A DNA stretch of 63,825 nt, the filler included. It is 7 parts of 7 records of this genome, joined end to end, with 100 filler letters (N's around TTAATTAATTAA, not from the genome) between each part and the next. Parts side by side here need not be neighbours in the genome. Positions count along the whole stretch, not along the records: positions 18,951 to 33,435 come from SRR31156797_12604; 6 more parts are not named here. The stretch is one strand, 5' to 3'. A program made the position numbers and the translations under genes. Below, in pieces: positions 9,341 to 34,711 of this stretch. Every line of letters begins with the position of its first letter. The stretch's first letter is position 1. The notes below the pieces were generated by a model, which saw nothing but the letters and a program-made list of their open reading frames with translations, did not search any database and was not told the origin of the DNA.

Positions 9341-9358
9341 TCTATTTCCTGTTGAATT

Positions 9359-10589: not shown

Positions 10590-10590
10590 T

Positions 10591-11166: not shown

Positions 11167-11167
11167 A

Positions 11168-11659: not shown

Positions 11660-11677
11660 TATTTAAACAGAGTTATA

Positions 11678-12115: not shown

Positions 12116-12138
12116 ATAAGAAGAAAATTCTTCTTATC
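12115..12138. terminator. Bidirectional hairpin between convergent genes
   Basis: GATAAGAAGAA-AA-TTCTTCTTATC perfect inverted repeat. Confidence 0.7.
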
Positions 12139-12142
12139 ATAA

Positions 12143-13117: not shown

Positions 13118-13119
13118 TA

Positions 13120-15355: not shown

Positions 15356-15539
15356 TATTCTACATATAATATGTATTATTTTGACATTCATTATGTATAA
15401 TTTTTACTTAATTCTTAATAAAATTAAACTGTTAATATATTTTATAGCTGTATAAAAAATCTATTTATGAGACATAAATGTTTATTTTTTAGTACATAGG
15501 TAATGTTTTGAATAAGGTTTTTTTTATTTTTATGCAGGA

Positions 15540-15567
15540 AATCACTTTTTTATTTAAAAAAGTGATT
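15540..15567 (-). terminator. Hairpin at the 3' end of the 15566-16231 gene
   Basis: AATCACTTTTTT-ATTT-AAAAAAGTGATT. Confidence 0.55.
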
Positions 15568-16231
15568 ATGAGTTAGAAGAATCTTCTATTTTCTTTTCTA
15601 AGTCAGTTTTTGATAATTCTTCTATCTTTTTATCTACTATTGATAAAGTTTTTTCTTGTGTTTCATAAGAGATATCTGGTAATTTTCCACCCCAAAGTTT
15701 TTCAGCATCCTCAAAACCTTTTTCAATACCAGCTCTTGCTTCTTTTAAAGCTTCTATATTATCTCCCGCAATTGCAATCACAAAAGAACTTACACGTTCT
15801 GATGTTTGAGTTACACCAAAGAAACCTTCATCAGATACTAACTCTTTAGCTTCTTGTGAATTTAGTTCTGTTATTGCTTTACCTTCATATCCAATTGATT
15901 GTAAACTAAGACCACTTACACTCTCTTTTCCAGAAAGAAAGTCATAAATCTCTTCATTATTTACTATATTTAAAATATTACTTTGTGCACTACTGTTTTC
16001 TTGTGTATATTCAGCACTTTTAATATTTAAATATACTTTTAAACTTTCCATTGAGATTGAAAGCATAACAGCAGAACTATGAATTCTACTTTTTTGTGCC
16101 TCATCACTACTTGAAACAGGTTCAATAGTATTTTCTTTATTTCCAGTTTTTGGATAATCATTAACACTTGCTTGCCCTACACTATTTGAGTTCATATATA
16201 ACTCATTTGTATTTGTATTTAATTGGCTCAT
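15566..16231 (-). CDS. Conserved Campylobacterota hypothetical protein (DUF5610-like)
   Basis: GFFGVTQTSERV...GFEDAEKLWGGKLPDISYET motif. Confidence 0.65.
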   Translation of the reverse strand: MSQLNTNTNELYMNSNSVGQASVNDYPKTGNKENTIEPVSSSDEAQKSRIHSSAVMLSISMESLKVYLNIKSAEYTQENSSAQSNILNIVNNEEIYDFLSGKESVSGLSLQSIGYEGKAITELNSQEAKELVSDEGFFGVTQTSERVSSFVIAIAGDNIEALKEARAGIEKGFEDAEKLWGGKLPDISYETQEKTLSIVDKKIEELSKTDLEKKIEDSSNS

Positions 16232-16397
16232 AATAATACCCCTATTAACTGTGTTACACAGTTGTTACTATTGTTACAATTATATTTTTACATTTCTTAA
16301 ATTTTGTTTAAACTTAAATAAAAATTAAATAACTAGTTCTAACATTTTAGATTATTTTTACAAAATTTAACTATAATAATTAGTAAAAAGAAGGTTT

Positions 16398-18158
16398 TTG
16401 ATGCATAAACTCTTATTTACTATTATATTTATTAAATTACTAATAATTAACTTGTTCGGATTTAGCACATCACTTGACACTACAATGTACAAAAAGAGTT
16501 ACAAAAATGAAATCCTTAAGGAATTGAAAAATAAAAATTATTTTTTATTGAATAAAAAACTTATAAAAATATATTATAATGATAATAATTATGAACTTTT
16601 CTTTATAAAAAATGGAGAAATTAAGGATTTTACTAAGAATTTTATCAATATTTTAGAAAACGATGAAATAATAAACTCAAATATAAATATAGATTTTAAT
16701 TTAGATAAGCTAAAACAAAAAATTCAAAGTAGTAGCTACACGACATCTATAGAAACACTTATCGAAACAGATATTATGATTTTAGAAATTTACGACAAAT
16801 ACATGAAAGCTTTATCAAAAGGTAGCATAAACTGGAATTTATTTATTGATGCATTAGAAAAAAGGCAAAAGAAGGAAGTCAATGCACATTGGGAAAAATA
16901 TATTGCCTTTAAAAATCCAAGATATTTACTTTATGATGCAGAAAAAAATAATAACATAAATATTGCAATTGATGCTGTTAAACCAAACTTTCAGTTAAAC
17001 CAAGCTTTATCTAAAAAAATAAAAGAGTTTGAAAAAATTTATCAAAATGGTGGTTTTGCACATATTGAGAATACAGATGAACTAATAAAAGTGGGAAACT
17101 ATTACCCTCAAATTACAAATATAAGAAAAAGACTTGTTTTAGAAAACTATTTAGATGAAAAACCTTGTAATGATGATATTCGCATTTTTAAAGATAAAAA
17201 AATTGAAGTTAAAGATTGTAAGCAACTTTATGACAAAGAACTTTTTTATGCAATAAAAAAGTTCCAAAAAAACTATGGTTTAATTATAGATGGGATTATT
17301 GGACAAAATACTATAAATATTCTTAATACCCCTATTTCAGATTTAATCAATAAAATGAAACTAAATCTAGAAAGAATGAGATGGATGAAAAGAGATTTGG
17401 GAGAAGAATATATACTTGTAAATATTCCTGATTTTAATCTAAAAATGTATAAAAATGATGAAAAAATACTTGATATGCCAGTAATTGTTGGAGATAAAAA
17501 ACACCCTACTCCAATATTTAGTCATAAGATGTCAAAAATTGTATTAAATCCATATTGGAAAATTCCTCAATCAATTGTAAAAAAAGAGATTATTCCAAAT
17601 TTAGTAAAAAATCCAAATTATCTTCAAGAAGAGGATATTAGAGTTCATGAAAACTGGGACCATGATTCTATTAAATATGATACACAACATGTAAAATGGA
17701 AATCTTTTTTAGATAGTGAACTTATTGGAGACCCAGTTAATTCACCTATGAGATTTATACAAATTCCAGGAGACAAAAATCCATTAGGACGAATGAAGTT
17801 TATGTTTCCTAACAAATACTCTGTTTATCTACACGATACGCCAAAAAAAGAGTTGTTTAACATGAAAGATAGAGCCTTATCTCATGGTTGCATAAGATTA
17901 TCAAAACCAAAAGAGCTATTAAAAATCATAACACAAAAAGAAGAGATTGATTATGATAATGCAACAAACACTTTGAAAACAGAAACAAGAAAAGAATTTG
18001 ACCTAAAAAAGACAATTCCTATACATATAATATATTTGACTTCGTGGGTAAATGAAAAAGGAAAACTACAATTTAGAAGAGATATTTATGATTATGATAA
18101 TATTCAAGAGAGTTTATTACTTAAAACTCCTCCTGTATTTTCTGCCTCAAAACTTTGA
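16398..18158 (+). CDS. YcbB/LdtD-type L,D-transpeptidase with a peptidoglycan-binding domain
   Basis: FQKNYGLIIDGIIG, NLERMRW, VNIP, YLHDTP...SHGCIR catalytic His/Cys. Confidence 0.92.
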   Translation: MMHKLLFTIIFIKLLIINLFGFSTSLDTTMYKKSYKNEILKELKNKNYFLLNKKLIKIYYNDNNYELFFIKNGEIKDFTKNFINILENDEIINSNINIDFNLDKLKQKIQSSSYTTSIETLIETDIMILEIYDKYMKALSKGSINWNLFIDALEKRQKKEVNAHWEKYIAFKNPRYLLYDAEKNNNINIAIDAVKPNFQLNQALSKKIKEFEKIYQNGGFAHIENTDELIKVGNYYPQITNIRKRLVLENYLDEKPCNDDIRIFKDKKIEVKDCKQLYDKELFYAIKKFQKNYGLIIDGIIGQNTINILNTPISDLINKMKLNLERMRWMKRDLGEEYILVNIPDFNLKMYKNDEKILDMPVIVGDKKHPTPIFSHKMSKIVLNPYWKIPQSIVKKEIIPNLVKNPNYLQEEDIRVHENWDHDSIKYDTQHVKWKSFLDSELIGDPVNSPMRFIQIPGDKNPLGRMKFMFPNKYSVYLHDTPKKELFNMKDRALSHGCIRLSKPKELLKIITQKEEIDYDNATNTLKTETRKEFDLKKTIPIHIIYLTSWVNEKGKLQFRRDIYDYDNIQESLLLKTPPVFSASKL

Positions 18159-18843
18159 TTTGAGAGTTTTTCAAAAAGTATGTGTCTTCAACTAAATACT
18201 TCATAAATCTAACTTCTACATTTGTAAAGCCATCTAACTCTTTCTCTTTTATTGAAACATCATTACCTGATACTCTTACTCTTCTTAGCTTTCCATTTTC
18301 ATTTTTAACATAATAAACTATATCAAATTCTTTACTATTTATCTTTTCTATAGTTACAAAGATATTTTGGATATAGTCATCATAAGATGGAACCTGTTTT
18401 AAAAACTCATCTGGGTCTAAAAATCCAATATAAAGTTTTGTATAAATATCAAAGTATAAAGAAAGTTTTTGAGTTTTGAAAAATTTTAAATTTATAAAAT
18501 GCAAATTTGCACTTCTACAAGATTTAAAAATCCATTGAAGTGTTTGAAAATATATAAACTTTGAGTGTTTGATTGTAAAAGCTTCTATAAATTTTTTGTC
18601 TGTATAACTTGTTTTAAATCCAGTTTTTTTTCTGTTAAAAACTAAACTTCTAAGAAGGTCTTTATCTTCTAAATCTTTTGTAATCCAAATAGTACAATAT
18701 GAAGGAAATCTTTTTAGTCCCACTGTACCTTTTGTTAATACAATTAATGCTTTTATATTTAAATTTGGAAATAATACTTTTAACAAGGCATATTTTTTGT
18801 CTAATCTTTTATTTAAACTGACTGTTTTTTTAGAAGTACTCAT
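18121..18843 (-). CDS. Hypothetical protein (possibly 5' truncated)
   Basis: 240-aa ORF in very AT-rich DNA; frame is open to the contig edge; no motif recognised. Confidence 0.6.
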   Translation of the reverse strand: MSTSKKTVSLNKRLDKKYALLKVLFPNLNIKALIVLTKGTVGLKRFPSYCTIWITKDLEDKDLLRSLVFNRKKTGFKTSYTDKKFIEAFTIKHSKFIYFQTLQWIFKSCRSANLHFINLKFFKTQKLSLYFDIYTKLYIGFLDPDEFLKQVPSYDDYIQNIFVTIEKINSKEFDIVYYVKNENGKLRRVRVSGNDVSIKEKELDGFTNVEVRFMKYLVEDTYFLKNSQIKVLRQKIQEEF

Positions 18844-18850
18844 CTCAACA

Positions 18851-18950
18851 NNNNNNNNNNNNNNNNNNNNNNNNNNNNNNNNNNNNNNNNNNNNTTAATT
18901 AATTAANNNNNNNNNNNNNNNNNNNNNNNNNNNNNNNNNNNNNNNNNNNN
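18851..18950. other. Artificial contig spacer
   Basis: N-run/TTAATTAATTAA/N-run. Confidence 0.98.
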
Positions 18951-19427
18951 GGGGAGAATCATTCCCCCCTCCATTTTGGAAATGATCTGTATCGGGAAAT
19001 CTCTTCATTGAAATATTCAAGTTTCAATTATACGACCGGGAAGAACGCACCAGCGGCCTTGGACGGGGATGAGTTCACCAGCCTTGATTTCAACAAAAAT
19101 GACCACAACCGGATTGAGATAAACAGGGACTATGATCTCCTGCGACAAGAGATCGATCAATCATTTGACAGCGAACTCAATAACCGGGCGTTCAGGACAA
19201 AGCTGCTATCCATAACCTCGGCAACCTTTACATTCGGTATTATCAGCTTTCTGTTACGGGCCGGATCCCTGATGGCAAGCCTGGTCTCAAGCCTGCCGGT
19301 ATGGCGGGGATTTGACCCGATAGCCGTTTTTTCCGGAAGTAAAAATCCCCCCAGGATTAAAACAGATGACATTTCAGATGCGGACGAATTAAAAGCGGAA
19401 TCTCTTTTTGATGGTGAGGCAGAATGA
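18951..19427 (+). CDS. C-terminal fragment of a membrane-anchored protein, probably a large cadherin/VCBS/DUF4347-type surface protein
   Basis: Frame is open from the contig start; hydrophobic segment then LRAGSLMASLVSSLPVWRGFDPIAV, a tail I recall from large repetitive surface proteins; ATGA overlap with the next gene. Confidence 0.6.
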   Translation, partial: GENHSPLHFGNDLYREISSLKYSSFNYTTGKNAPAALDGDEFTSLDFNKNDHNRIEINRDYDLLRQEIDQSFDSELNNRAFRTKLLSITSATFTFGIISFLLRAGSLMASLVSSLPVWRGFDPIAVFSGSKNPPRIKTDDISDADELKAESLFDGEAE

Positions 19428-22405
19428 TTTTTAATACCCCTGCCATACGGCTGAGCACCGCCCTGGTACTGTTGACGATCAACCTGCTCCTGTTGGCCGA
19501 GCTGATCGGATTTGTTCCCGACAAATCCAAATCCGCGTTACAGGTGCGTAAAAGTTTAAGCGAGTCCCTGGCCCTGCAGTTTTGCACCGCAGCCGAAAAA
19601 GGAGAGTTCCAGACCATCCAGACCACCCTCCGGGCAGTGGTGGAGAGAAACGACGATATCCGTTCTGCGGCAATACGCACCATTAACGGTAAACTTCTCG
19701 CCATTGAGGGAGAGCACCTGCTCCACTGGAAGCCCCCGGTGGACGGGAAATCAACCCCGACCCATGTAAAGGTCCCCCTGTTCCTGAAAAATAAAAAGTG
19801 GGCGGAGGTGGAAATCTGTTTTGCCCCGTTGTGGGCAAATAACCTGACAAGCGGATTCACCAATTCATTCACCGGTCTTCTGGTTTTTATCGGCGTGGGC
19901 TGTTTTATCTGTTATTTCTTTCTCATCAAAAGGACCCTGCGTGAACTTGATCCCGCGGCGGTTATTCCGGAACGGGTTCAGAAAGCCTTTGATGTTCTTC
20001 AGGAAGGGGTGGTGATCCTGGATGAAAAAGAACTGATCGTGATGACCAACAAGACTTTTGCCGGGCTGCTCGGCAAGTCTCCCAAGGCAATGATCGGGCT
20101 GAAGGGATCGGAACTTGGATGGCTCGAGTGTCACACCCCGGAACAGGTACGACAATTGCCATGGTTCAAGGCCATGGAGGGCGGCAAAGAACAAAAAGGC
20201 GTCTCCCTGAGGCTGCGAAACAGCCTGGGCAATAAAATCAAGCTGGCCGTCAATGCTTCCATACTGACCGATAATGGGGGAAATCGCCACGGCACCCTGG
20301 TTACGTTTGACGATATCACCCAATTAGAAGAAAAGAACCTGGAGCTCAGCGACCTGGTCGACAAACTCCAGGTGGCCAACGAAGAAATCAATGGGAAAAA
20401 CCGGGAGCTGGAAATCCTCGCCAGCTGCGATCCCATGACCCTCTGTTTGAACAGGCGCTCCCTGGCTAAAAGGTTCGATGCCCTGTTCACCCGGGCAAAG
20501 GCGGACAGGAAGCAACTGTGCTGCCTGATGGCGGATATCGATTTTTTCAAAAAGGTCAATGACAATTATGGCCATGCAACCGGAGATGAGGTGATCAAGG
20601 CGGTGGCGGATGTTCTGAAAACCGCCACCCGGGAAACCGACCTGGTCGGGCGCTACGGCGGAGAAGAGTTCTGTGTGGTGCTGCCCGGACTTCATATAGA
20701 CCAGGCCGTCCAGATTGCCGAGCGCATCCGCAAGACAGTCGAAAATCAATCCTGCTCCGGGGTCAAGGTCACCGTAAGCCAGGGAGTGTCTTCCATTGAA
20801 TTCAATGCCTGCAAACCTGACGAGCTGATCGATCAGGCAGATAAAGCCCTTTATGCGGCAAAGAAGGGCGGAAGGAATCAGGTTATCACCTGGGGAAAAG
20901 ATCTGGAGTCGCAATCCGAGGACGACGGCGGGAAGGAAATCCGGGATCAGGTTTCAAAACCGGACAAACCGGAAACCGGGGATACGGACCAGGCGAAACT
21001 GGAGCGTCGCCTGCTGGAACTTGAAGGGCTCCTTGAAAAACGCACCCTGGAGTTGGAGCACTTTAAAATGTATGACTTCAAGACAGGTTTGCCCACCCGC
21101 TCTCTTTTTGAAGACCGGCTCACCCGTGAAATTGCCAGAAGCAAGCGGATGAATACACTGATGGCGGTATTGTCCATGACCATCGACACCATAAAACGGG
21201 TCCACGAAACCCTCGGATACAAGGCTGCCGAGCAATTGGTGAAAGCGTGCGGTCAGCGGTTGAATACGGTATTACGCGGGAATATCGATACGGTTGCCGT
21301 TATCGAAAACGTTGAAGATATGTCAGCGGTTTCCCTGATCGACCAGACGGAATTCGCTATCCTGTTGACCGATATCAGGCAGGTCGACCATGTTACCTGG
21401 ATAATGAAGCGTATGCTGGATGCGTTTAAAAAACCAGTCCGGATCAAAGGAAACGAAATTTACGCCTCGGTCTATTTCGGCGTCAGCATCTTCCCCCACG
21501 ACGGCCAGACCGGGGAGGTATTGTACAGCAGCGCCAGCAATGCCTGCAGATATGCACGGGAACTCAATGGCAAGGAGCGTTATTTGTTCTCTTCCCAAGG
21601 TCTGAACGAAATGGCAGCCAACAAACTGCATATTGAAAACTTACTCCATGATGCCATCAGGAATGATGAACTGCAACTGCACTACCAGCCCAAGATTGAA
21701 GCTGCAACCGGCCGGATCGGCGGATTTGAAGCGCTGCTTCGCTGGCGGAATGCCCGGTTGGGATCTGTTCCACCGGATCATTTCATCCCGGTGGCAGAGC
21801 AGTCAGGACTGATCGACGACCTCGGCGACTGGGTTCTTTATACCGCATGCCAACAGCTCAGGACCTGGATGGATATGGGGCTTTGGGTTGCGCCCATCGC
21901 GGTCAACATGTCGGGGATTCAGCTGGGTCAGCAAACCCTTGCCAACCGGATTCAACAGATTCTGGATGAGTTCAACATAGATGTCGGTCTGCTTGAAATA
22001 GAGTTGACGGAAAGCGCTTTCATCAACAACGGAGACAAATCCTTTGCCGTTCTGAAACAGATCAGGGAGATGGGGCTCCGGATAACCATGGACGATTTTG
22101 GTACGGGGTACTCATCATTGTCCTATTTAAGGGATATTCCGCTCTCCGGTTTGAAAATAGATAAATCCTTTGTGGCAGATATCAACAAGGATGAAAATGC
22201 CAATAAACTGATCATTTCCCTGGTTTCAATCGCCCATGTACTGGGGCTGGAAGTGGTTGCGGAGGGAATTGAGAAAAAGTACCAGGCGGAGCATCTGATC
22301 GCGTTGGGTTGCGAATATCTCCAGGGCTATTATTTCAGCCGTCCCATACCCGAAACCGAGGTTGTGAAGATCTTGAAAGAACAACAGACAAGGTTGGGGA
22401 ATTAA
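19424..22405 (+). CDS. Membrane-bound PAS-GGDEF-GGDEF(degenerate)-EAL diguanylate cyclase/phosphodiesterase
   Basis: Two TM, PAS, RETD I-site plus RYGGEEF, second GGDEF fold with IDQTEF, EALLRW, DDFGTGYSSL, EGIE, QGYYFSRP. Confidence 0.92.
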   Translation: MIFNTPAIRLSTALVLLTINLLLLAELIGFVPDKSKSALQVRKSLSESLALQFCTAAEKGEFQTIQTTLRAVVERNDDIRSAAIRTINGKLLAIEGEHLLHWKPPVDGKSTPTHVKVPLFLKNKKWAEVEICFAPLWANNLTSGFTNSFTGLLVFIGVGCFICYFFLIKRTLRELDPAAVIPERVQKAFDVLQEGVVILDEKELIVMTNKTFAGLLGKSPKAMIGLKGSELGWLECHTPEQVRQLPWFKAMEGGKEQKGVSLRLRNSLGNKIKLAVNASILTDNGGNRHGTLVTFDDITQLEEKNLELSDLVDKLQVANEEINGKNRELEILASCDPMTLCLNRRSLAKRFDALFTRAKADRKQLCCLMADIDFFKKVNDNYGHATGDEVIKAVADVLKTATRETDLVGRYGGEEFCVVLPGLHIDQAVQIAERIRKTVENQSCSGVKVTVSQGVSSIEFNACKPDELIDQADKALYAAKKGGRNQVITWGKDLESQSEDDGGKEIRDQVSKPDKPETGDTDQAKLERRLLELEGLLEKRTLELEHFKMYDFKTGLPTRSLFEDRLTREIARSKRMNTLMAVLSMTIDTIKRVHETLGYKAAEQLVKACGQRLNTVLRGNIDTVAVIENVEDMSAVSLIDQTEFAILLTDIRQVDHVTWIMKRMLDAFKKPVRIKGNEIYASVYFGVSIFPHDGQTGEVLYSSASNACRYARELNGKERYLFSSQGLNEMAANKLHIENLLHDAIRNDELQLHYQPKIEAATGRIGGFEALLRWRNARLGSVPPDHFIPVAEQSGLIDDLGDWVLYTACQQLRTWMDMGLWVAPIAVNMSGIQLGQQTLANRIQQILDEFNIDVGLLEIELTESAFINNGDKSFAVLKQIREMGLRITMDDFGTGYSSLSYLRDIPLSGLKIDKSFVADINKDENANKLIISLVSIAHVLGLEVVAEGIEKKYQAEHLIALGCEYLQGYYFSRPIPETEVVKILKEQQTRLGN

Positions 22406-22431
22406 CCTTTTTTTGCCAGGGGAGGCACCCA

Positions 22432-23265
22432 GTGTTTCATAAAGTTGTAAAGTCAGCGCAGCTGATTTCGTTACCGGATATCTATATAAAATTAAAGAGA
22501 TTAATGAAGGAACCGGATTACACCATGGCGGAAGTAGCCATTCTGGTGGGGCGTGATCCCGGAATGGCCGCCCGTTTTCTGCGCATCGTCAACAGCCCCC
22601 GGAACAGGCGAATCCATAAAATCGAAACAGTGGCCCATGCCGTCTCCATACTGGGTATGGATCAAATTCATGATATCGTCCTCAGCGCCTCCGTTGCAGA
22701 AGCTTTTGATGGGCTCCAAACAAAACTGATGGATATGAAAAAATTCTGGAAGCGCAGTTTTTACTGTGCCTTGATGGCAAAACTGCTTGCCCTGGCATGC
22801 GGCATAAAGGAAAGCGACAAACTCTTCGTAAATGGCCTGCTCCATGATATCGGCCACCTGTTCATGTATCTGTCGATTCCAAAAGAATCACAACAGGCGA
22901 TTTTGTACGCGAAAAAGCAGGAACGGCCTTTGTATCAGGTGGAAAGGGAGCTTCTCGGATTTGATTACGCAAAGCTGGGGGGCTACGTCATGGGGCAATG
23001 GAATCTGCCCCAAAGCCTCCAGACAATCACAAGCTTTCATCCTGAACCGGCCAGGGCCAATCAGTTTATCCAGGAAACAGCGTTGTTGCATCTGAGTTCC
23101 CTGCTGGTCATATCCGATCTGGAAAAGCGTATTTTTGGGGAAGGGTCATTTTCGGTTGACCCCACCGTCTGGCCGGTAACCCGCCTGACCGAAGAACAAT
23201 GTTTGAATTTCAGGCAGACCGCCGCATATCAGTTTAATGAAGTTGCAAACAGTCTTTTTATCTAA
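22432..23265 (+). CDS. HDOD-domain protein
   Basis: LISLPDIY, DPGMAARFLRIVNS, GLLHDIG, WNLP; GTG start after GGGAGG (ORF track start at 22309 is probably over-extended). Confidence 0.88.
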   Translation: MFHKVVKSAQLISLPDIYIKLKRLMKEPDYTMAEVAILVGRDPGMAARFLRIVNSPRNRRIHKIETVAHAVSILGMDQIHDIVLSASVAEAFDGLQTKLMDMKKFWKRSFYCALMAKLLALACGIKESDKLFVNGLLHDIGHLFMYLSIPKESQQAILYAKKQERPLYQVERELLGFDYAKLGGYVMGQWNLPQSLQTITSFHPEPARANQFIQETALLHLSSLLVISDLEKRIFGEGSFSVDPTVWPVTRLTEEQCLNFRQTAAYQFNEVANSLFI

Positions 23266-23276
23266 GAGGTCTTGGC

Positions 23277-24611
23277 ATGGCATTCCATAAAAGTGTTTAT
23301 TTCCTGATGCTGGTTTTATTCTGGATGGCTTCGGTGCCGTTATCCCCAGGCGCGGGTGTGACCCCCGTCGGGCAATCGATTGAGAAGGCCCTGGATCATA
23401 GTCCCCGATTGCAGGCACTCCGCCACAGCCATGGGGCCATTGAATACGACCTCCAGCAATCCCGGGCCCGATACCTCCCGTCTGTTGATCTGCAGCTCGG
23501 GTACGGTATGGAACAGCACAGTGATGAGGTTACCCGCCAGACAGGCGCCGATCCGGCCGATACCGACTGGGAGCCCCGGGGCAACGCCACCCTGAAATTG
23601 ACCCAGAAAGTTTATGACGGGGAAGAAACCGGGCAGCAGGTCTGCATCCAGGAATCATTGCTGGAATCATCGGATTTCACCATTCAGGATGCCGCCCAGG
23701 CCATTGCCCTGAATGCGGTAAAAGCGCACCTGGAAGTATACAGGCAGCGGGAGCTGGTTGCCCTGGCGGAAAAGAATCTCAAGGTTCATCAGGATATTTT
23801 TCAATCGCTTTCAAAGATGGAACAGGCCGGAGCAGGCAACATTGCCGATGTCAGCCAGACCCGGGCCCGCCTGGCCCGGGCCCGGTCGAACCTGTTCATC
23901 AGTAAAGCCGACCTTACCAGGGCCATGGTTTATTACACCCGGCAGGTCGGCGCCCAACCGGGGGAACTGGCCCCGGCTGAAGTGCCAAAGGGAATGCCCG
24001 CCTCCCTGGAGGAGGCCCTGGGATGGACCGAACAAAACAATCCGGAACTTCTGACGTTTAACGCCAGGCTCACTGAAGCCCATGCCAGGGTGGCCCTTGC
24101 CCGTTCAAACTACAAGCCCAGAATCAATATTGAACTGAGCAGCAGTTACGACGATAACCTTGAAGGGGATCCTTCCTGGCAGAATACCAACGAGGCCATG
24201 GTGATCCTGCGCTGGAACCTGTTCAACGGCGGCCAGGACAAAGCAAAGAAAAACGCGGCCCTGTCGCGAAAGAGAGAAATTCGCTCCAGCCGGGATGACA
24301 GGCTGCTTGAACTTCGCCAGGAGACCGCCGGGACCTGGGCAACCTATCTTTCCCTGCAAAGCCAGAAGAAAGCCCACCAGGCCGCAGTACGCTACAGCCA
24401 AAAAACCTTTGACGCCTACCTAAAGCAATTTAACGTTTCAAAACGAAGTCTCCTGGATCTCTTAAGTGCCCAGGATGACTACTTTCAATCCGCCAGCCAG
24501 CTGGTCATCGTCAGTGCGGACGAAATCATTGCGGCCTACCGGCTCCTGAAACTGGCAAGGGCCGTGCACCTTCCGGAACATTCGACAATTGGGAAATCCC
24601 CCGGGGATTAA
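23277..24611 (+). CDS. TolC-family (AggA/LapE-like) outer-membrane secretion protein
   Basis: Signal peptide, YLPSVDL, WNLFNGG, KRSLLDLLSAQ; two OEP repeats. Confidence 0.88.
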   Translation: MAFHKSVYFLMLVLFWMASVPLSPGAGVTPVGQSIEKALDHSPRLQALRHSHGAIEYDLQQSRARYLPSVDLQLGYGMEQHSDEVTRQTGADPADTDWEPRGNATLKLTQKVYDGEETGQQVCIQESLLESSDFTIQDAAQAIALNAVKAHLEVYRQRELVALAEKNLKVHQDIFQSLSKMEQAGAGNIADVSQTRARLARARSNLFISKADLTRAMVYYTRQVGAQPGELAPAEVPKGMPASLEEALGWTEQNNPELLTFNARLTEAHARVALARSNYKPRINIELSSSYDDNLEGDPSWQNTNEAMVILRWNLFNGGQDKAKKNAALSRKREIRSSRDDRLLELRQETAGTWATYLSLQSQKKAHQAAVRYSQKTFDAYLKQFNVSKRSLLDLLSAQDDYFQSASQLVIVSADEIIAAYRLLKLARAVHLPEHSTIGKSPGD

Positions 24612-26098
24612 GGTGCATCTGTCTCAACAGCAAACCTTCCCCCATCGGCCTGCCCATTGGGGGATTCAGAGGCCCTTTCACCCGACCTGCCGCCGCTGTA
24701 CCAGAACCCCAGTGCCTTTGCCGCAACCAGGATCCCCACCGCCGCAAGCACCAGGGCCAGGGTGGTGGCCAGCCCGTACGTTGCGTAAAATATGGGGCTG
24801 AGGGAAACCAGGAAAAGTTCGATGGGCGCGATGATGATATATGCCAGCCCGTAATCCTCCAGGGTCTCGCTTTCAAAGTTCGGGTCTACAATGCGCAGGA
24901 GGGTCACGCCAAAGGCCACAACCCCGGTACACCATCCGAAATTGAAGATCCCCCGTTCAAACCAGTAGTTGTTGGACATGCGCGGGGCAATCACATAAAG
25001 GTTGAACAACACCCACCCCATGCCGAGGAGAATGAGCAACAGAAGCGGCTGCCAGAAGGTGACCACCACGGAGATCTTGATGGAGGCCACACCAAATCCC
25101 ACCATAAAATCGGAGAAGCAGCTGCCCAGCCGTGTACTCACCTGCTTATCGACAAATCCGTCCATTTTCAGGACAACCAGGGCCTTCTGGATGGCCATTG
25201 CACCGATCATGGCAGTGCAGACCTCGGGCATGTAGAGCGCTTTGCCGCCGATGGAAAGCCAGGAGATCTGTGAGATCCACTTGGTCAGGTAGATGCCGCC
25301 CAGGGTGGCAGCGAAGATCAGGGCCGCATGCCAGGCAAGGGGATCGATGGACATGGGGGAAACGGTCTGTTCTCCCACGGACAGCCGCTCTTCCCGGGGG
25401 ATCAGGCCGGTGCGCAGGGATTCGGGAAGTGACCCCGCCTCTTTGACGATCCGGGTATACTGCTTTCTGGTTGCAGCCCGGATCAGCATCACACCGCCGA
25501 AGATCGCCACCAGAAGCCCGATGGTTGCCATGGTCATGCCCACGGTGATGGCATCATGAAAGCCTAATTTCTCAAGGGTTCCGCCGATGGCCGTGGCATA
25601 GCCGTGCCCGCCTGCAAAACCTGCGGGCAGCATCCATGCAAATCCTTCGTGGAGGTCCGGCCAGAACAGTTTCATGACGGTAAGTCCCAGCACGGCCGCC
25701 AGAGCAAACTGGGCCACTTCGGAGAACAGACTGAAGAAAAAGGTGCTGCCGGCCTTGTCAATGATCTCTTTCTTGGACTTGAACGCCCTCTGGCCAATGG
25801 GGAATGTGGCAAACAGCAACACAACCAGGAGCCAGGCGTATTTCCCCATGACCGGTGAAAAGGGAATCACGTCCAGCATCTGGGGACCGAGTATCAGCCC
25901 GATAAATCCGGCAATCACCGAGGCCGGTATGAAAAAATCCTGGAAAAACCTGATTTTTGCCCGCATCACCTTGCCCACAAAAAGGAGCAAGGCCATGAAA
26001 CAGAAATCCTTCAGGATCGCCAGGGGGGCGCTTTTCATTATTTTCGCAATCACTTCCGGGTCTTGGACGGCTTGAACAATCATTTCAGGTGACATCAT
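24608..26098 (-). CDS. Sodium/glutamate symporter family (GltS/ESS) transporter
   Basis: FIPASVIAG, GFAGGHG, ATIGL, FGWCTG...LLRIVDP; many TM helices. Confidence 0.85.
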   Translation of the reverse strand: MMSPEMIVQAVQDPEVIAKIMKSAPLAILKDFCFMALLLFVGKVMRAKIRFFQDFFIPASVIAGFIGLILGPQMLDVIPFSPVMGKYAWLLVVLLFATFPIGQRAFKSKKEIIDKAGSTFFFSLFSEVAQFALAAVLGLTVMKLFWPDLHEGFAWMLPAGFAGGHGYATAIGGTLEKLGFHDAITVGMTMATIGLLVAIFGGVMLIRAATRKQYTRIVKEAGSLPESLRTGLIPREERLSVGEQTVSPMSIDPLAWHAALIFAATLGGIYLTKWISQISWLSIGGKALYMPEVCTAMIGAMAIQKALVVLKMDGFVDKQVSTRLGSCFSDFMVGFGVASIKISVVVTFWQPLLLLILLGMGWVLFNLYVIAPRMSNNYWFERGIFNFGWCTGVVAFGVTLLRIVDPNFESETLEDYGLAYIIIAPIELFLVSLSPIFYATYGLATTLALVLAAVGILVAAKALGFWYSGGRSGERASESPNGQADGGRFAVETDAP

Positions 26099-26178
26099 TA
26101 TCCTCTTTTTCGGATTTAAGATTTCAAAACAGGTTTACCAGGGGAGTGCCCCCCAAGGAAACCTGTCCGTTGCTCAGC

Positions 26179-27423
26179 TTAATAGAGAAAATATTTCTGC
26201 ATGTTTTTGAGGGTGTGGTCGTCCCGCATATAATTGGGTTTGCTGCTGTTGCGCTGGATGGCATCAAACCCTTCGGGATCATAGGGATCAAATACCACAT
26301 CCGGCGCCTGGTCCGGGGTGGTTTCCCGGCAGAGCTCCACGTGGCGGATCAGCTTCTCCTCGGAAAAAGCGACCAGCTCCTTGAGGAAACCAAAGGCATG
26401 CCGCATCTGGTGGAACCCGTATTTTTTCATCAAAGCATACCCTTTTACGGCGTCTCCTTCGGCCCGGAGGCCTGGGTGCTCTTCACTTGTGGTGCAGGCG
26501 CTGTGAATGGAGGGCAGCTTCAGCTTTTTGTTCACATGGTCCAGAAGAAGGTTTACCACATTGTGGGAAACCAGTCCCAGGTCCACCGCATAGTTTTTAT
26601 TGATATTGGCCACGGAGGGCAGCCCCGCATGGACAACGGTGACCCCGGGATTGACAAGCTGGGCCAGGGTAATGCCGAACAGGGCTTCGGCATGGGTCAG
26701 GGCCAGGAGGCCGGAGGTGGAGTACGGGGCTGAAAGCCCGGCCATGGGCATGGTGGAAACATAGGTGGGAATGCCTTTGCGGACACAGTCCAGGAACGGG
26801 GGAATCATGCTCTCAATCACGTTCAGGGGGCTGTTGATGATGGAAAACTGAACGGTCAGGTTGCCCCGGGTATTGTGGATCTCCAGGGCCTTGGCAAGAC
26901 CGGCTTCGGTAACGGCGGCCGCGTAAATGGGCTTTTTGAAATGGGCGGTCATGAGATCCATCACCTTGACCTCTTCCTTGGGAATCAGCACCCCCCTTGC
27001 CATAAAATCCACCACATCGGCCTGCTGGGCGATCTTACAGATCCGGGCCAGGTGTTCAAAGGTCGGCTGGACCAGTTCGCCTGTGGCGTCATCATGGACA
27101 AAGGGCGCGGTGCCGCCGATGCCAAAGGCATTTTCAGGAATCCAGTACTGGTCCCGTTTGGGAACAGTGGCAAGGGCCTGCTCAATCAGGGGGGACAGCA
27201 CATAAAGGTGGCCGGTGGTCTCATCATAGGCGGCCATGCCGGTCTCTTCGAATATGGACCGGACCTCGGGGGAATCACATTTTACACCGACCTCCTCCAG
27301 CACCCGGAGGGCATCGGCATGGATCCGGTCCAGCAGGGGCAGTTGGTCCAGCGTCCCGCTTTCCATCCGGCCAACTGTTTCCGGCCGGGGCATCTGGTAC
27401 ATGGTTTCTGGGCTTTGGTACAT
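26179..27423 (-). CDS. Trimethylamine methyltransferase (MttB) superfamily protein, non-pyrrolysine
   Basis: IHADALRVLEEVGV, INSPL, PMAGLSAP...GLLALTHAEALFGITLAQLVNPG, DHTLKN; no in-frame TAG; ATG at 27423 follows AAGGAAG. Confidence 0.85.
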   Translation of the reverse strand: MYQSPETMYQMPRPETVGRMESGTLDQLPLLDRIHADALRVLEEVGVKCDSPEVRSIFEETGMAAYDETTGHLYVLSPLIEQALATVPKRDQYWIPENAFGIGGTAPFVHDDATGELVQPTFEHLARICKIAQQADVVDFMARGVLIPKEEVKVMDLMTAHFKKPIYAAAVTEAGLAKALEIHNTRGNLTVQFSIINSPLNVIESMIPPFLDCVRKGIPTYVSTMPMAGLSAPYSTSGLLALTHAEALFGITLAQLVNPGVTVVHAGLPSVANINKNYAVDLGLVSHNVVNLLLDHVNKKLKLPSIHSACTTSEEHPGLRAEGDAVKGYALMKKYGFHQMRHAFGFLKELVAFSEEKLIRHVELCRETTPDQAPDVVFDPYDPEGFDAIQRNSSKPNYMRDDHTLKNMQKYFLY

Positions 27424-27485
27424 GATTTCTTCCTTTTCTATGGGAGTTTCCTGTCTGATCTCAAACAGATTTGCCACCTTACCTG

Positions 27486-27502
27486 AGCAAAGGATGTGCC
27501 AA
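27486..27502 (-). promoter_or_regulatory. sigma54 (-24/-12) promoter of the MttB-GltS unit
   Basis: Minus strand TTGGCACATCCTTTGCT matches TGGCAC-N5-TTGC exactly; about 60 nt upstream of the start and next to a bEBP gene. Confidence 0.9.
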
Positions 27503-27570
27503 ACGCCCAACCAAACCAGAACCGACTGATATAATAGACAAAAACAAAAAGAAAGAAGAAACACAAAAAT

Positions 27571-27668
27571 AGGGCCCGGAGGCCCCATTCATCATTTAAC
27601 AATTTAGAATCACAAACAATTTAAAGCATCAGGGCCATATGACCCCATTTGGGTTTTTGAACCCCATT
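27571..27668. promoter_or_regulatory. Three palindromic boxes, candidate upstream activator sequences
   Basis: aGGGCC-cgga-GGCCCcatt (27571), aGGGCC-atat-GACCCcatt (27631), tGGGTT-tttg-AACCCcatt (27650). Confidence 0.65.
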
Positions 27669-27675
27669 GAAAGAC

Positions 27676-30036
27676 TCACATCTTCAGGCCATGGGCCTTT
27701 ATTTTTTTGAAAAGTGTCTTGCGGTTGATGTTCAGGATCTCGGCCGTTTTGCCCCGATGCCAGTTGAGTCGAATCAGCGCTTGCTCGATATAGGCTTTTT
27801 CAAAATTTTCCATGGCTTTCCGAAGATCGGTAAAGCCTTCGATGTTTTGATCCTCCTCCTTCCTCATCCCCTGCTCCCGGGAAACCAGGCCTGCAAAATC
27901 AAGCTTTTTCAATGTGACATAGCGGTTCAACACATTCTGCAGCTCCCGGACATTTCCCGGCCAGTCATAGCTTCTAAACGCCTCAATGATATTCCCGGTG
28001 ACCGGCGGCAGGATTTCGGGATCGTATTTGTCCAGAAAATGCTCTATGAGCAGGGCGATATCTTCCTTGCGCTTCCTGAGCGGGGGAAGAAAGATGGGAA
28101 CGATGTGAATCCGGTAATAAAAATCCCGCCGCATGAGCCCTTTTTTGACCAGGGACTCCAGATCCTTGTTGGTGGCCGCCACGATCCGGATATCCGGCGT
28201 TCTGACCCCGGTGCCGCCCACCGGCGTAAATCCGCCGCCCTCGATGGCCCGCAAAAGCATCACCTGCATGTTCAGATCGATATCTCCGATCTCATCCAGA
28301 AACAGGGTGCCGCCGTCCGCCCGGTCCATAAACCCGGTTTTGTCTGCATCCGCGCCCGTGAACGCTCCTTTTTTGTGACCAAAGAACTCACTTTCCAGCA
28401 GATTTGCCGGAATGGCCCCGCAGTTTACCGGCACAAAGGCCCCCTGGCTCCGGTCGCTCATGTCATGGATGGCACGGGCCACCAGCTCCTTGCCTGTACC
28501 GGATTCGCCATAGAGAATCACATGTTCATGGGTGGCGGCCGCCTTGAGTATCATCTCATACACTTCCTGCATGACCTGGCTTTTCCCCACAATATCACCA
28601 AACCGGAACCGCTCTTTCATGGCCGACCTCAGCCGGACATTCTCACAGCGCAGTCTTATTTCCTCCTCCTGCTGCCCGGTTACATCGGTGATAAACCCCT
28701 CCAGGATGGGAGTTGCGCCATCCAGGCTTCGGGATGCCACCCCATAATCGCAAACCCACTTGTATCCCCCGGCCCGGGTTTTCATGCGGTACAGATAGGG
28801 ATACCCGTTTTCCGGTTCCGGATGGCTTTCAATGGCCGGAAAGTCATCCGGACAAACCAGCTTTTTAAAGGTTCGGATGCCCTGGTCCGCAAGGTATTCC
28901 GGCGTGTATCCCAGCAGCCTTTCGCAGCCGCTGCTGATAAATTCAATTGTCCGTTCATCATCGGTCCGGGACCGGTAAACCATGCCGGGCAGGTTGTCCA
29001 TGAGGGTGGTAAGCTGTCTCTGGTGCGCTTCAAGGACCTGCTCAGTCTTTTCCCGCTTTCTGACCTCCCGGTTCAGGATCTCGTTTTTTTCTGAAAGGGC
29101 AAGGGTCTTCCTGCGCACCTGCATCTCGAGCAGAAGACTGCTCAGCAAAAACAGGAGGGCCAGGCAGCCCGCACCGGCCAGGGTATATGCCGCCCACCTG
29201 GGCACCAGCCAATCCCGGGACATGGCCTCCAGCCGGCTCACGGTCCACTTGTCAAGGGCTTCATGGTAAATGGATTCCGGATCTGATTTCAACGCGACCA
29301 GGTGACGGTCGATGGCATCGGTCAGATCATTGTTCCGGCCTTTGGCAACGGCAAACCTGAGTTCCGTGGGCATAAAGATGATGGCGGTTTTCTCCGCCCG
29401 GTACCGGCGGGCGTGCTGCAAGGCAAAGATATTGCTCGAAACCCCGGCATCCACCTCTCCCCCCTCCACAAGCCGGAAGATGGTGTCATAATCCTCGGCT
29501 TCAACAATCTCGCAGGTGAGGCCCGTCTGTTTCAGGATTTTTCTGAGATATTCCGAGAAGACACCGTTTTTATAAAACGCGACTTTCTTTCCGTCAAGGG
29601 CTGCAATGGACTCAATTTTCAAATTTTTCCGGGCGTAGAGGCGTCCCCAGTTGGTCATGAAGGTTTCCCGGTTGAAATCAAAAAAGCGGGCACGGTCTTC
29701 GGAATAGGCAATGCCGATCATCAGGTCGATCTTCCCGTTTTTCAGCCGCTCGAGGTTCTCGGTCCAGTTCCCGTTCACATACTCAAGCTGCCATTTTTCC
29801 GCCTTTGCCATGTGCTCAAGGACTTCAATATAAAGCCCCCCGGCTTTTCCGTCCAATGACCGGAAGACAAAAGGCTTGTAATCGTACACCCCGACCCGGA
29901 CCGGAACATCCCCGCGGGATGGGACCGGCGCCAGCAGCAAGAGGCTGAAGAAGATCAACAGTATATTTTGTTTCACAAGTCCACCTGTCCGCCTGAAAAC
30001 ATCATAAAGCTGTCTCCGGCTGCTTAAAAAGTTCAT
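27676..30036 (-). CDS. One-component sigma54 enhancer-binding protein: periplasmic amino-acid-binding domain, TM, PAS, AAA+, Fis-HTH
   Basis: YDYKPF...GLYIEVL PBP domain, [36 protein letters not shown]. Confidence 0.92.
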
Positions 30037-30115
30037 TTTACAAAAACCACCGTACCCATTTCACGGTAAGCCCAAAAACACAACTTTTTTTTGGGCTTGA
30101 CAGGGGATCGCGCCA

Positions 30116-30667
30116 TTGGCAATAGTAATAACAGCTATGATAAACAACAGCCCCAACCAGCCCGGGAAGAAACAGATAAGAAGACCCTACATCATCGATG
30201 TGGAAGCGTCGGGGTTCGGCCAGGGCAGCTACCCCATCGAAATCGGCCTCGCCCTGGAGCCGGGGGAACGCTACTGCTCCCTCCTGAACCCGGCCCCGGA
30301 GTGGACCCATTGGGATGAAAACGCCGAAAAGATCCATTGCGTGACCCGGGAGTGCCTGCTTCTCAACGGCAGCCCCATTGCCCAGGTGGCAAACGACCTC
30401 AACCGGCTTTTGAAAGACAAAACCATATACAGCGACGGATGGGTGGTGGACAAACCCTGGCTCACAACCCTGTTTTATGCGGCAAAGGTTCACCAGCGCT
30501 TCTCCATCAGCCCCATCGAGCTAATACTCTCAGAAGACCAGATGGCCATCTGGGACGACACAAAGGCCCGGGTCACCCGGGAGCTGGCGCTCAGGCGGCA
30601 TCGGGCAAGCGCCGATGCCCTGATCGTCCAGGAGACCTATGTGAGAACCCGGGCAAAGACCTGCTGA
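30116..30667 (+). CDS. Stand-alone DEDDh 3'-5' exonuclease-family protein (start may be ATG 30137)
   Basis: IIDVEASG...YPIEIG, DKPWL, HRASADA. Confidence 0.8.
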   Translation: MAIVITAMINNSPNQPGKKQIRRPYIIDVEASGFGQGSYPIEIGLALEPGERYCSLLNPAPEWTHWDENAEKIHCVTRECLLLNGSPIAQVANDLNRLLKDKTIYSDGWVVDKPWLTTLFYAAKVHQRFSISPIELILSEDQMAIWDDTKARVTRELALRRHRASADALIVQETYVRTRAKTC

Positions 30668-30850
30668 CCCACGGCTTCGGTTTGCCTGCTCTCATCCATT
30701 TCCACGGGAGCCGCTGTCGCGGAAGAACCGGAAACCAGTCATTTTCAGATGTCATTGTTCCATCCCATTCAGCTTGTTCCCGAAGATCAGGATATCAGCG
30801 GCCTGCGCCTGAACCTTCTTTACGGTGTAAACCGCAACGTTACCGGCCTG
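30668..30850 (+). pseudogene. Relic of an exported LA_2272/VC2662-like surface-repeat protein
   Basis: Frame reads ASVCLLSSISTGAAVAEEPETSHFQMSLFHPIQLVPEDQDISGLRLNLLYGVNRNVTGL: signal-peptide tail without a start codon, and similarity ends at a T-run. Confidence 0.5.
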
Positions 30851-33535: not shown

Positions 33536-34711
33536 GATGCCGAACACTTCTTTGACGGCTTTAAAGCCAACCCGGAATTCACCATAAGCTGCCTGAAGGC
33601 TGCACATGAAGCCGGAGCCGACATTCTCATTCTTTGCGACACAAACGGCGGTTCCATGCCTGATGAAGTGGCTGAAGCATGCAGAGTCGTGCAGGAGAAG
33701 ATTCCCGGATGCAGTATCGGAATTCATGCCCACAATGACTGTGAACTGGCAGTAGCCAACTCCCTTGCAGCGGTCAAAAATGGTGCGATCCAGATTCAAG
33801 GAACCATGAACGGATATGGTGAAAGGTGCGGTAATGCCAACCTTTGCTCTATCATCCCCAACCTTGAACTTAAACTCGATTACGAGACCATCGGTAAAGA
33901 TAAGCTGATCAAGCTGAAGGAAACTTCCACTTATATAACAGAGATCGCCAACCTGCGTCCTTTCCTGCGCCAGCCCTTTGTCGGGCAGGCCGCATTTGCA
34001 CATAAGGGTGGCATTCATGTTAGTGCTGTACTCAAGGATTCCACCAGCTACGAACATATTGATCCCCTACTTGTTGGAAATGATCGTAGAGTGCTGCTCT
34101 CCGACCTTTCCGGCAAGAGCAACGTGCTCTACAAGGCCAAGCAGTATGGCTATGATCTTGATAAAAACGATCCTGCGGTTCAGACTATTCTGGCTGACAT
34201 CAAGGAACGTGAATCCATCGGTTTTGAATATTCTGCAGCAGAGGCTTCCTTTGAACTGCTTTTCTTTAAAGCCATGGGTTGGTCCAAGCGTTATTTTGAA
34301 TTCATCAACTTCTTCGTAGTTGATGCCAAGCGCAAAAATGATCTGGAGCCATTTTCCGAGGCAACTGTCATTGTGAAAGTTCACGGACAGGAAAACCATA
34401 CCGCCGCTTCAGGTGATGGTCCGGTTAATGCCCTCGATAAAGCATTGCGAAAAGCACTTGAACCATTCTATCCGTCTTTAAAAGAAGTTCGTTTACAGGA
34501 CTTTAAGGTAAGAGTATTGTCCGGAGCTGTACGTCAGGCAGCGGGAACAAGTTCCAATGTCCGCCTGCTTATTGAATCCACTGACGGCAAAAGCCAGTGG
34601 ACCACCATGGGCGTCAGCCACAACATTATTGAAGCGAGCTGGCAGGCCCTAGTGGACTCCATCAACTACAAGCTCTTCAAGGATGATCCTCAAAAATGGC
34701 CATCAAGATAA
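33536..34711 (+). CDS. cimA: Citramalate synthase (5' truncated)
   Basis: DAEHFFDG, LCDTNGG, HAHND, GYGERCGN, AHKGGIH, SDLSGKSN, C-terminal regulatory domain. Confidence 0.88.
   Translation, partial: DAEHFFDGFKANPEFTISCLKAAHEAGADILILCDTNGGSMPDEVAEACRVVQEKIPGCSIGIHAHNDCELAVANSLAAVKNGAIQIQGTMNGYGERCGNANLCSIIPNLELKLDYETIGKDKLIKLKETSTYITEIANLRPFLRQPFVGQAAFAHKGGIHVSAVLKDSTSYEHIDPLLVGNDRRVLLSDLSGKSNVLYKAKQYGYDLDKNDPAVQTILADIKERESIGFEYSAAEASFELLFFKAMGWSKRYFEFINFFVVDAKRKNDLEPFSEATVIVKVHGQENHTAASGDGPVNALDKALRKALEPFYPSLKEVRLQDFKVRVLSGAVRQAAGTSSNVRLLIESTDGKSQWTTMGVSHNIIEASWQALVDSINYKLFKDDPQKWPSR

Follow-up and report, generated by a model that had tools for sequence, protein, structure and literature searches.

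A three-gene cassette on the minus strand of a 63,825-nt stretch of DNA from a relative of sulfate-reducing bacteria (the window, which means the whole stretch that was analysed) encodes at 24608-30036 a sigma-54 activator of the bacterial enhancer-binding protein (bEBP) type, a short protein of the MttB superfamily (P0001) and a membrane carrier of the GltS family. The cassette is a real conserved unit, because it recurs together with a pair of upstream palindromes in a related metagenome-assembled genome (MAG), in a Desulfococcaceae MAG and in the cultured Desulfosarcina variabilis str. Montpellier, and it probably lets the cell take up and process a small nitrogen compound. With a probability of about 0.5, we read it as a module for inducible uptake that supplies a corrinoid methyl-transfer system encoded in trans, the substrate differing from the known betaines. 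What is new here is the enzyme, which is short and has a rebuilt pocket and a truncated docking region, together with the carrier family and the membrane-bound activator. The features of the cassette are as follows.

27676..30036, minus strand: gene of the solute-binding-protein (SBP)-type bEBP, 786 aa, assigned from Pfam, sequence and hydropathy
27629..27648, minus strand: upstream palindrome A, ATGGGGTCATATGGCCCTGA, putative activator binding site
27569..27588, minus strand: upstream palindrome B, ATGGGGCCTCCGGGCCCTAT, putative activator binding site or terminator-like hairpin
27486..27501, minus strand: sigma-54 promoter, TGGCACATCCTTTGCT, with GG at -24 and GC at -12, the only perfect match in the window
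27429..27435, minus strand: Shine-Dalgarno sequence AAGGAAG, read from the sequence, 5 nt before the ATG at 27423
26179..27423, minus strand: gene of the short MttB-superfamily TIM-barrel protein P0001, 414 aa, assigned from profile, fold and alignment
24608..26098, minus strand: gene of the GltS/ESS-like polytopic membrane carrier, 496 aa, assigned from Pfam, NCBIfam and hydropathy

The co-oriented bEBP gene, sigma-54 promoter, MttB-like gene and GltS-family carrier gene all lie where an earlier description of this DNA, made from the letters alone (the sequence-only reading), had placed them. Its account of an MttB-like protein of about 414 aa with no amber codon also held, as P0001 runs from the ATG at 27423 without an in-frame stop. 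The gap of 252 nt between the bEBP gene and this ATG holds the promoter, and 80 bases separate the MttB gene from the carrier gene. In a mechanical list of open reading frames (ORFs) the distance after the bEBP gene is only 87 nt, owing to a 469-aa ORF; this ORF was rejected as spurious and not credible for the true MttB start, because its start falls upstream of the sigma-54 promoter. The earlier statement that no corrinoid, MtaA-like or BCCT gene lies on the contig agrees with a Pfam scan of the 49 window ORFs of at least 90 aa, which found no corrinoid, URO-D or BCCT gene, and with a search of the six-frame translation of the window by a corrinoid-protein hidden Markov model (HMM), which gave no match.

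Conservation of the cassette was followed in MAGs, metagenome contigs and the cultured strain. The related MAG (genome G001) has the same three genes (locus L001), with proteins 92-97% identical to those of the window. It matches window 18951-30686 at 90-93% DNA identity over a syntenic block and is a relative of the window organism, not necessarily of the same species. In the Desulfococcaceae MAG (L003) the activator, the promoter, the enzyme (82% identical) and the carrier are all present, and the activator, whose ORF call is cut at the N-terminus, is 54% identical over residues 178-784. Four loci (L103-L106) came from a scan of metagenome contigs with the carrier. Among them only L103 combines high identity with a visible upstream side, and there the gene of the enzyme (80% identical) immediately precedes that of the carrier. 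The sequences of L104 and L105 start within the carrier gene, and at L106 the identity is no more than 41%. D. variabilis (L109; cassette at G403:C1, about 3,280,300-3,285,900) was reached via a search with the sensor module of the activator. Its activator P0397 has the order SBP, transmembrane segment, PAS, AAA+ and helix-turn-helix (HTH) and is 44% identical in the sensor part; after it come the promoter and the genes of a short MttB (70% identity to P0001), of a GltS-like carrier and of an MscS channel. In a 26-row tree the proteins of the window, L001, L103, L003, L002 and L109 form one clade (SH-aLRT 96, a support value from a quick tree search). Five of these six are carrier-linked; in the exception, L002, the place of the GltS-like carrier is taken by a double CN-hydrolase together with an MFS carrier that resembles anion transporters.

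The promoter at 27486-27501 is the sole match without mismatch to TGGCAC-N5-TTGCW in 63.8 kb, and it stands 63 nt before the start codon. Relaxed matches (up to 2 mismatches) are at chance level, with 25 found and 32.5 expected, so that only the perfect site is informative. The promoter is kept in L001 as TGGCATATCCTTTGCT, in L003 as TGGCACGGAAGCTGCT and in L109 as TGGCACGATGGTTGCC, and rpoN was found in genomes G001, G002 and G403. Upstream of it stand palindromes A and B, each of 20 bp and of the form ATGGGG-N8-CCCYRT. The distance between them is 60 bp, and B lies 87 bp ahead of the -24 element. The spacing is exactly 60 bp in the window, in L003 (starts at 4362 and 4422) and in L109 (9544-9563 and 9484-9503), and the proximal palindrome begins 83-87 bp before TGGCAC. 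When one mismatch was allowed, the pattern matched five times in L109 against 0.63 expected, and four of the five are the two sites counted on both strands. Since arm sequences and geometry are kept across activators that are only 44-54% identical, the two palindromes are probable binding sites of the activator. Palindrome B scored also as a terminator-like hairpin behind the bEBP gene, and a double role is allowed for it; a role as the bEBP terminator only is less likely, because the arm sequences, and not just their pairing, are kept along with the second site in three lineages. A separate observation concerns the leader: in L109 the sigma-54 promoter is separated from the short MttB gene by a frame of about 65 codons that has a Shine-Dalgarno-like sequence of its own (about 9165-9361, minus strand), and the window leader of only about 50 nt holds nothing comparable.

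The activator consists, in order, of membrane segment 1, an SBP_bac_3 domain, membrane segment 2, a PAS domain, an AAA+ domain with GAFTGA, and HTH_8. Matches were obtained to SBP_bac_3 (residues 47-137, 69 bits), Sigma54_activat (PF00158, 215.6 bits) and HTH_8 (PF02954, 41.9 bits), and also to PAS_3 and AAA_lid_14; the sequence also shows the GAFTGA motif of sigma-54 AAA+ activators. By hydropathy, hydrophobic segments lie at residues 17-39 and 281-307, and because they bracket the SBP domain, this domain should face the periplasm. The closest solved relatives of the sensor domain are the substrate-binding domains of GlnPQ, an ancestral Gln/Arg binder, a Geobacter sensor domain and the BvgS domains. 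Arg115 of the sensor is aligned with a binding-protein arginine that we take to hold the alpha-carboxylate of the ligand in amino-acid binding proteins, and Ser201 stands at the position of an aspartate that presumably binds the alpha-amino group there. Ser201 was considered as a ligand clue specific to the cassette and dropped, because all 12 aligned members of the sensor family share Arg115 together with Ser or Asn at the 201 position, and the trait thus informs on the sensor family rather than on the cassette. The sensor module is homologous, at 28-45% identity, to those of BvgS-type kinases and GGDEF/EAL proteins. Among 63 proteins sharing it, 61 are histidine kinases, GGDEF/EAL proteins (cyclases, phosphodiesterases), PP2C phosphatases and other sensor or transport proteins, whereas a sigma-54 AAA+ end like that of the cassette activator was found only in the L001 ortholog and in P0397. 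A membrane-anchored sigma-54 activator is therefore an uncommon design. Papers are cited here by PMC number and from excerpts; the excerpt on the Desulfovibrio sigma-54 regulome has one-component activators that sense through GAF or PAS domains, and describes no membrane-anchored form (PMC4641369).

P0001 belongs to the MttB superfamily, with 119.1 bits against PF06253 (MTTB; cut-off 25). Against TIGR02369, the model for pyrrolysine MttB equivalogs, it reaches only 80.9 bits (cut-off 525), and in place of an amber codon its T311 is aligned to Pyl334 of MttB. An AlphaFold2 model built on a 50-row alignment has a mean pLDDT of 92.4 and a pTM of 0.90; only the first 22 residues are poor, and the first 23 or so, which are not conserved, have low model confidence. 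In a Foldseek search against the PDB the top 10 matches were all MttB (7XCL/M/N), MtgB (2QNE, 9YCE) or the Sinorhizobium homologue 4YYC, with query TM-scores of 0.70-0.74, and P0001 is accordingly modelled with the TIM-barrel fold of the superfamily; the next match, MtmB, had an E-value sixteen orders of magnitude weaker. G110 of MttB is kept as G101. In a 15-row clade alignment G104, I306, H342 and L350 are invariant, and H342 is found in at least 90% of rows once clades A and B are added.

The short MttB proteins form a large uncharacterised clade of Desulfobacteria. Of 8000 candidates scored in a word-index search, 825 were relatives at E<=0.001. Those listed (120) are 70-97% identical, mostly 390-417 aa long and named from Desulfobacteraceae, Desulfosarcina, Thermodesulfobacteriota and similar groups; across these and the listed relatives from species-representative genomes, with the closest MAG excluded, the clade is very strongly conserved at 67-82% identity. 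An exhaustive search of 50%-identity representatives gave 1217 matches at E<=0.001, only 29 of which reached E<=1e-30. Among the 29 are members of a few more short subfamilies (30-39% identity), and ordinary MttB homologues of 470-520 aa appeared only at E of about 1e-18 or weaker. All clusters obtained from the Protein Atlas were MTTB-named and from Thermodesulfobacteriota, and the distant short representatives have almost no cluster names. Short MttB genes were found in 16 of the 401 sampled genomes of the phylum (E<=1e-60). In species-representative genomes 168 relatives were confirmed, the best 80 of which were taken with their flanks as loci. The 128 MttB-like ORFs of the window and of these 80 loci fall into three groups in a tree: nine long proteins of 477-513 aa (one cut to 329 aa at a contig end), each adjoining a corrinoid, pterin-binding or Met_synt_B12-like gene; clade B, with 42 short proteins of about 404 aa; and clade C, with 77 short proteins of about 392 aa, P0001 among them. 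The branch joining the two short clades to the long proteins measures 1.6 changes per column, and P0001 is 40-44% identical to clade B and 19-24% to the long neighbours. It does not group with MtgB-type enzymes, an outcome that would have refuted the proposal of the sequence-only reading had it been the reverse.

The methyl-transfer reading is based, besides the fold and the pocket positions kept (H342 and G101), on the short MttB genes that sit with corrinoid genes in L115 and L114, on the machinery of G001, and on the precedent of Eubacterium limosum. At L115 (G086:C3, the contig of L063), a MarR gene, a clade B gene, a clade C gene and the gene of a 211-aa B12-binding protein stand in a row at 2760-6825, with no long MttB in 15 kb and without AsnB-like, DAO, metallo-beta-lactamase (MBL)-fold or CN-hydrolase genes. 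At L114, one co-oriented row holds a long MttB, a pterin-binding protein, a corrinoid protein, clade B, AsnB-like, MBL, clade C and CN-hydrolase genes, and at several further loci short MttBs are likewise co-oriented in a row with corrinoid and pterin methyltransferase genes. G001 has eight matches to MTTB, and it encodes a RamA-like activase besides three small corrinoid proteins and two pterin-binding methyltransferases. Its canonical MttB homologue (483 bits) is flanked by two BCCT genes and accompanied by a sigma-54 activator of its own and by genes for a corrinoid protein and a pterin-binding methyltransferase. A cluster of corrinoid, URO-D and RamA-like genes is also present. Small corrinoid proteins (E<=1e-25) were found in 14 of 17 genomes with short MttB genes. 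In E. limosum the gene of MtyB, like that of MtcB, adjoins an MFS transporter and is divergent from a RocR homologue, with MtqC in another cluster and MtqA/RamQ in a third, and the authors proposed a separate induction for the MttB genes, which are substrate-specific, and for the machinery that they share (PMC8604678). Because MtyB and MtcB have this same layout, and the closely related G001 encodes corrinoid machinery, the missing local corrinoid gene is no evidence for a new pathway, as the sequence-only reading had taken it to be.

Other MttB homologues of G001 were recorded alongside. One with a single in-frame TAG (L112 2364-3800; G001:C42:56342-57781) lies near BCCT, corrinoid and pterin-binding genes and is a candidate pyrrolysine enzyme. 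There are two more short MttB paralogs. At L081 (G001:C852) a short paralog stands between genes for a DAO-GCV_T fusion, an APH-type kinase, a HAD hydrolase and two SNF carriers, with a GntR regulator ahead; the pairing of kinase and MttB homologue recalls the phosphocholine-specific MthB named in PMC13080624.

The carrier scores 40 bits against PF03616 (GltS/ESS; cut-off 26) and 18.6 bits against TIGR00210 (E. coli-type GltS; cut-off 310.75), and it is only a distant GltS/ESS-family member, so that the earlier label of a glutamate-type symporter is not borne out. An ortholog stands directly after the short MttB in L001, L003, L103 and L109. When 867 ORFs from the 80 loci and the window were clustered, the GltS-like carriers had three members (window, L001 and L003) and the matching bEBPs five (window, L001, L003, L016 and L021). 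The linkage to GltS, on whose conservation the sequence-only reading had staked its proposal, thus stood within one subclade and failed across the family, where 3 of 81 sources had it in the first survey. Little can be read from the carrier about the substrate, because the linkage is confined to one subclade and the neighbours of most relatives are AsnB-like, DAO, MBL and CN-hydrolase genes. In the 401-genome sample a close ortholog occurs only in G001 and G002, and the next best is 38% identical with unrelated neighbours; homologues at 27-38% identity elsewhere in the phylum also have unrelated neighbours and gave no substrate clue. Downstream, the carrier and TolC-like genes of the window converge with a 4-nt overlap, and in L001 (10823-13177) genes for a FMN_red-type flavoprotein and a TetR regulator are inserted between them.

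A mechanism can be proposed on this basis. A small compound, probably one that has a carboxylate group but differs from the standard alpha-amino acids, would bind the periplasmic Venus-flytrap domain of the activator, and the signal would cross the membrane helix and the PAS domain to the AAA+ domain. Bound about 85 bp upstream at the two palindromes, which are 60 bp apart, the activator would open the sigma-54 promoter, and the transcript would carry the short MttB and the GltS-family carrier. The carrier would bring the compound in; the short MttB would bind it in the TIM barrel and transfer a methyl group to the Co(I) corrinoid protein encoded elsewhere, from which a pterin-binding methyltransferase would pass the methyl group to tetrahydrofolate. 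The analysis itself shows the genes, the promoter, the palindromes, their conservation, the MttB fold, the altered pocket and C-terminus, and the corrinoid machinery of G001. The ligand, the co-transcription and the direction in which the carrier works are inferred, and so, most of all, are the transfer of methyl groups and the corrinoid partner. The substrate suggested in the sequence-only reading, an N-methylated acidic amino acid, is a candidate compatible with the anion-type carriers, DAO, GCV_T and CN-hydrolase of the relatives.

A number of observations weigh against methyl transfer to a corrinoid protein. According to the excerpt of a 2026 study, glycine betaine is bound in MtgB by Y97, R312, H348 and F356; every characterised member has R312, and all of them act on acidic quaternary amines, while the cation-pi pair Y97/F356 belongs to MtgB only and is not conserved in the other enzymes (PMC13080624). 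Both phmmer and profile alignments put I306 of P0001 at R312, and Y97 and F356 are replaced by G104 and L350; H348 is kept as H342, at a position where MttB has a tyrosine (Y364). The GxPE motif, which is GSPE in MttB and MtgB, is also lost: as the sequence-only reading had noticed for the region YAVDLGLVSH (residues 278-287), there is no GxPE there, and the profile alignment puts GLVS (residues 283-286) opposite GSPE. Compared with the long homologues, the short proteins end 60-80 residues earlier and lack several inserts, and the alignment of P0001 with MttB stops at MttB residue 426, with the protein ending about 8 profile positions later. In the MttB-MttC complex, as given in the excerpt, residues 396-452 of MttB form a dimerization loop anchored by helices 453-467 and 475-494, and the corrinoid protein is contacted primarily by the loop that comes from the partner subunit (PMC9842639). 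P0001 is without the end of this loop (396-452) and both anchoring helices (453-494), so that the short proteins, if they use a corrinoid, must hold the corrinoid protein differently because their docking region is truncated. With three of the four betaine residues, GSPE and the C-terminal helices missing, P0001 is, judged by its sequence, not an MtgB/MtpB/MtcB-type enzyme.

The gene neighbourhoods point in the same direction. The usual order in clade C is MarR, clade B MttB, AsnB-like, DAO flavoprotein, MBL-fold, clade C MttB and CN-hydrolase, and the typical neighbours are not methyl-transfer genes: AsnB-like genes were found in 55 of the 80 loci, MBL-fold genes in 43, DAO in 42, CN-hydrolase in 33 and MarR in 27, all of them lower bounds because contig ends cut many loci and greedy ORF picking took antisense ORFs. 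OpuA-type ABC genes often adjoin the operon, sarcosine-oxidase-alpha-like and GCV_T genes sometimes. All NCBIfam matches of the AsnB-like, DAO, MBL, CN-hydrolase, MFS and PrpD-like neighbours were far below cut-off. The 'cluster 7' ORFs of up to 930 aa (L024, L036, L063, L073, L074 and others) are high-GC artefacts antisense to MttB or AsnB-like genes. A strong match to the corrinoid-protein HMM was obtained in 9 of the 80 loci and none in the other 71. Seven of the nine also hold a long canonical MttB, which could be the true partner of the corrinoid protein there; in the eighth (L006) the contig ends just after the corrinoid gene. Of the 17 genomes with short MttB genes, three gave no corrinoid match (G007 of 1.6 Mb, G341 and G389, whose completeness is not established). 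No assay of any short-clade member was found in the open-access library searched, and searches there for MttB with sigma-54, with the nearby gene families or with sulfate-reducer genera returned nothing on the short clade.

These points would also fit a clade that has left methyl transfer and acts as a cofactor-independent hydrolase, lyase or isomerase on an amide- or amine-bearing organic acid. The cassette would then be an uptake-and-conversion unit in which corrinoid is not involved; this is the main rival of the reading that we favour, and we hold it to be less likely than that reading. The loss of R312, Y97, F356, GSPE and the corrinoid-docking C-terminal helices (PMC9842639), together with the absence of a corrinoid gene from most loci and from the window, speaks for it, as do the AsnB-like, DAO, MBL-fold and CN-hydrolase neighbours. 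Two residues are new and invariant in the aligned rows of clades B and C, namely H244 (N in canonical proteins) and R341 beside H342, and L002, in the GltS-linked subclade, has the MFS carrier and the double CN-hydrolase. We know of no PF06253 member with another activity, which counts against such a change of function, and at L115 two short MttBs lie directly before a corrinoid gene with no long MttB nearby. The co-oriented rows of short MttB, corrinoid and pterin methyltransferase genes argue against it too, and an orphan layout is normal for the E. limosum enzymes (PMC8604678). It is improbable, too, that P0001 is an ordinary but short quaternary-amine methyltransferase for glycine betaine, proline betaine, carnitine or the like, even though the public record is annotated as trimethylamine--corrinoid methyltransferase and OpuA-type betaine ABC genes lie beside many relatives and in the window (12143-15391). 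R312 of all characterised acidic quaternary-amine enzymes in the excerpted study is an isoleucine in P0001 (PMC13080624), the identity to the long neighbours is only 19-24% across a separate long branch, and the TIGR02369 score stays at 80.9 bits against a cut-off of 525. The carrier is moreover not a BCCT protein, whereas the canonical MttB homologue of G001 is flanked by two of them.

That the three genes are mere neighbours without a shared function, with the target of the activator elsewhere and the promoter match due to chance, we regard as very improbable: relaxed promoter matches are indeed no commoner than chance, but the perfect one stands 63 nt before the start codon, the gene order, promoter and two palindromes are kept in three to four lineages, and the six cassette-type proteins form one clade. 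A further reading keeps the corrinoid and changes the chemistry. The short clades would be corrinoid methyltransferases for non-quaternary substrates, such as secondary or tertiary N-methyl amino acids or S-methyl acids, with a new mode of docking and no pyrrolysine; taken as a whole, we find it rather doubtful. The rebuilt pocket (H244, T311/T312, R341-H342) would activate the substrate without pyrrolysine, and long, clade B and clade C paralogs that share an operon and one corrinoid protein would strip successive methyl groups. The window cassette would be a stand-alone version for one such compound, which the rare membrane-bound sigma-54 activator would sense outside the cell.

Comparison with known systems places the inducible uptake module that we favour: in function its nearest analogue is the design of E. 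limosum, whose logic it follows. Like MtgB of Desulfitobacterium hafniense (2QNE, 9YCE), P0001 has the same fold (query TM-score 0.72-0.74) and keeps H348; unlike MtgB, to which it is about 18-19% identical in structural alignment, it is without Y97, R312, F356 and GSPE and has a C-terminus about 60-80 residues shorter. In contrast to the E. limosum systems, the cassette combines a short enzyme without R312 and a GltS-like carrier with a co-oriented, membrane-anchored regulator that has a periplasmic binding domain; the RocR-like regulator of E. limosum we take to be soluble. The E. limosum loci for MtyB (gamma-butyrobetaine) and MtcB (carnitine) share with it the set of an MttB gene, a transporter and a sigma-54-type regulator, and differ in their MFS carrier and divergently transcribed regulator (PMC8604678); their enzymes are of full length and keep R312 (PMC13080624). 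Methanosarcina barkeri MttB (7XCL, 7XCN) also has the fold of P0001 and the glycine kept as G101, whereas P0001 has T311 for pyrrolysine and His for Y364 and is without the distal dimerization loop and helices 453-494 (PMC9842639).

Some features of the window lie outside the cassette. The stretch 10400-19000 has 21-33% GC, against about 41% in 1-10.4 kb and 48-60% from 19 kb onward, and encodes ACT-domain, FliL, OpuA-type ABC and YkuD genes; the synteny with the contig of the related MAG covers window 18951-30686 only and ends at its edge. It is either a foreign island or part of a chimeric contig. A LeuA/homocitrate-synthase-like ORF at 33656-34711 opens only midway through its HMGL-like domain (profile positions 170-243 of 260) and may be truncated or frame-shifted. 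At 44103-44750 a CI-like repressor with Peptidase_S24 is followed by several ORFs without Pfam matches (44846-48952), and this stretch could be a prophage remnant.

Enzymes of the MttB superfamily decide whether methylated nitrogen compounds in sediments and guts are turned into trimethylamine and methane or are quietly demethylated. Few substrates are known for the superfamily, and the short clade, which is common in marine sulfate reducers, breaks the sequence rules of the characterised enzymes. With one sensor, one enzyme and one carrier together in the cultured D. variabilis, the question is directly testable, and the cassette offers an unusually clean handle on it.

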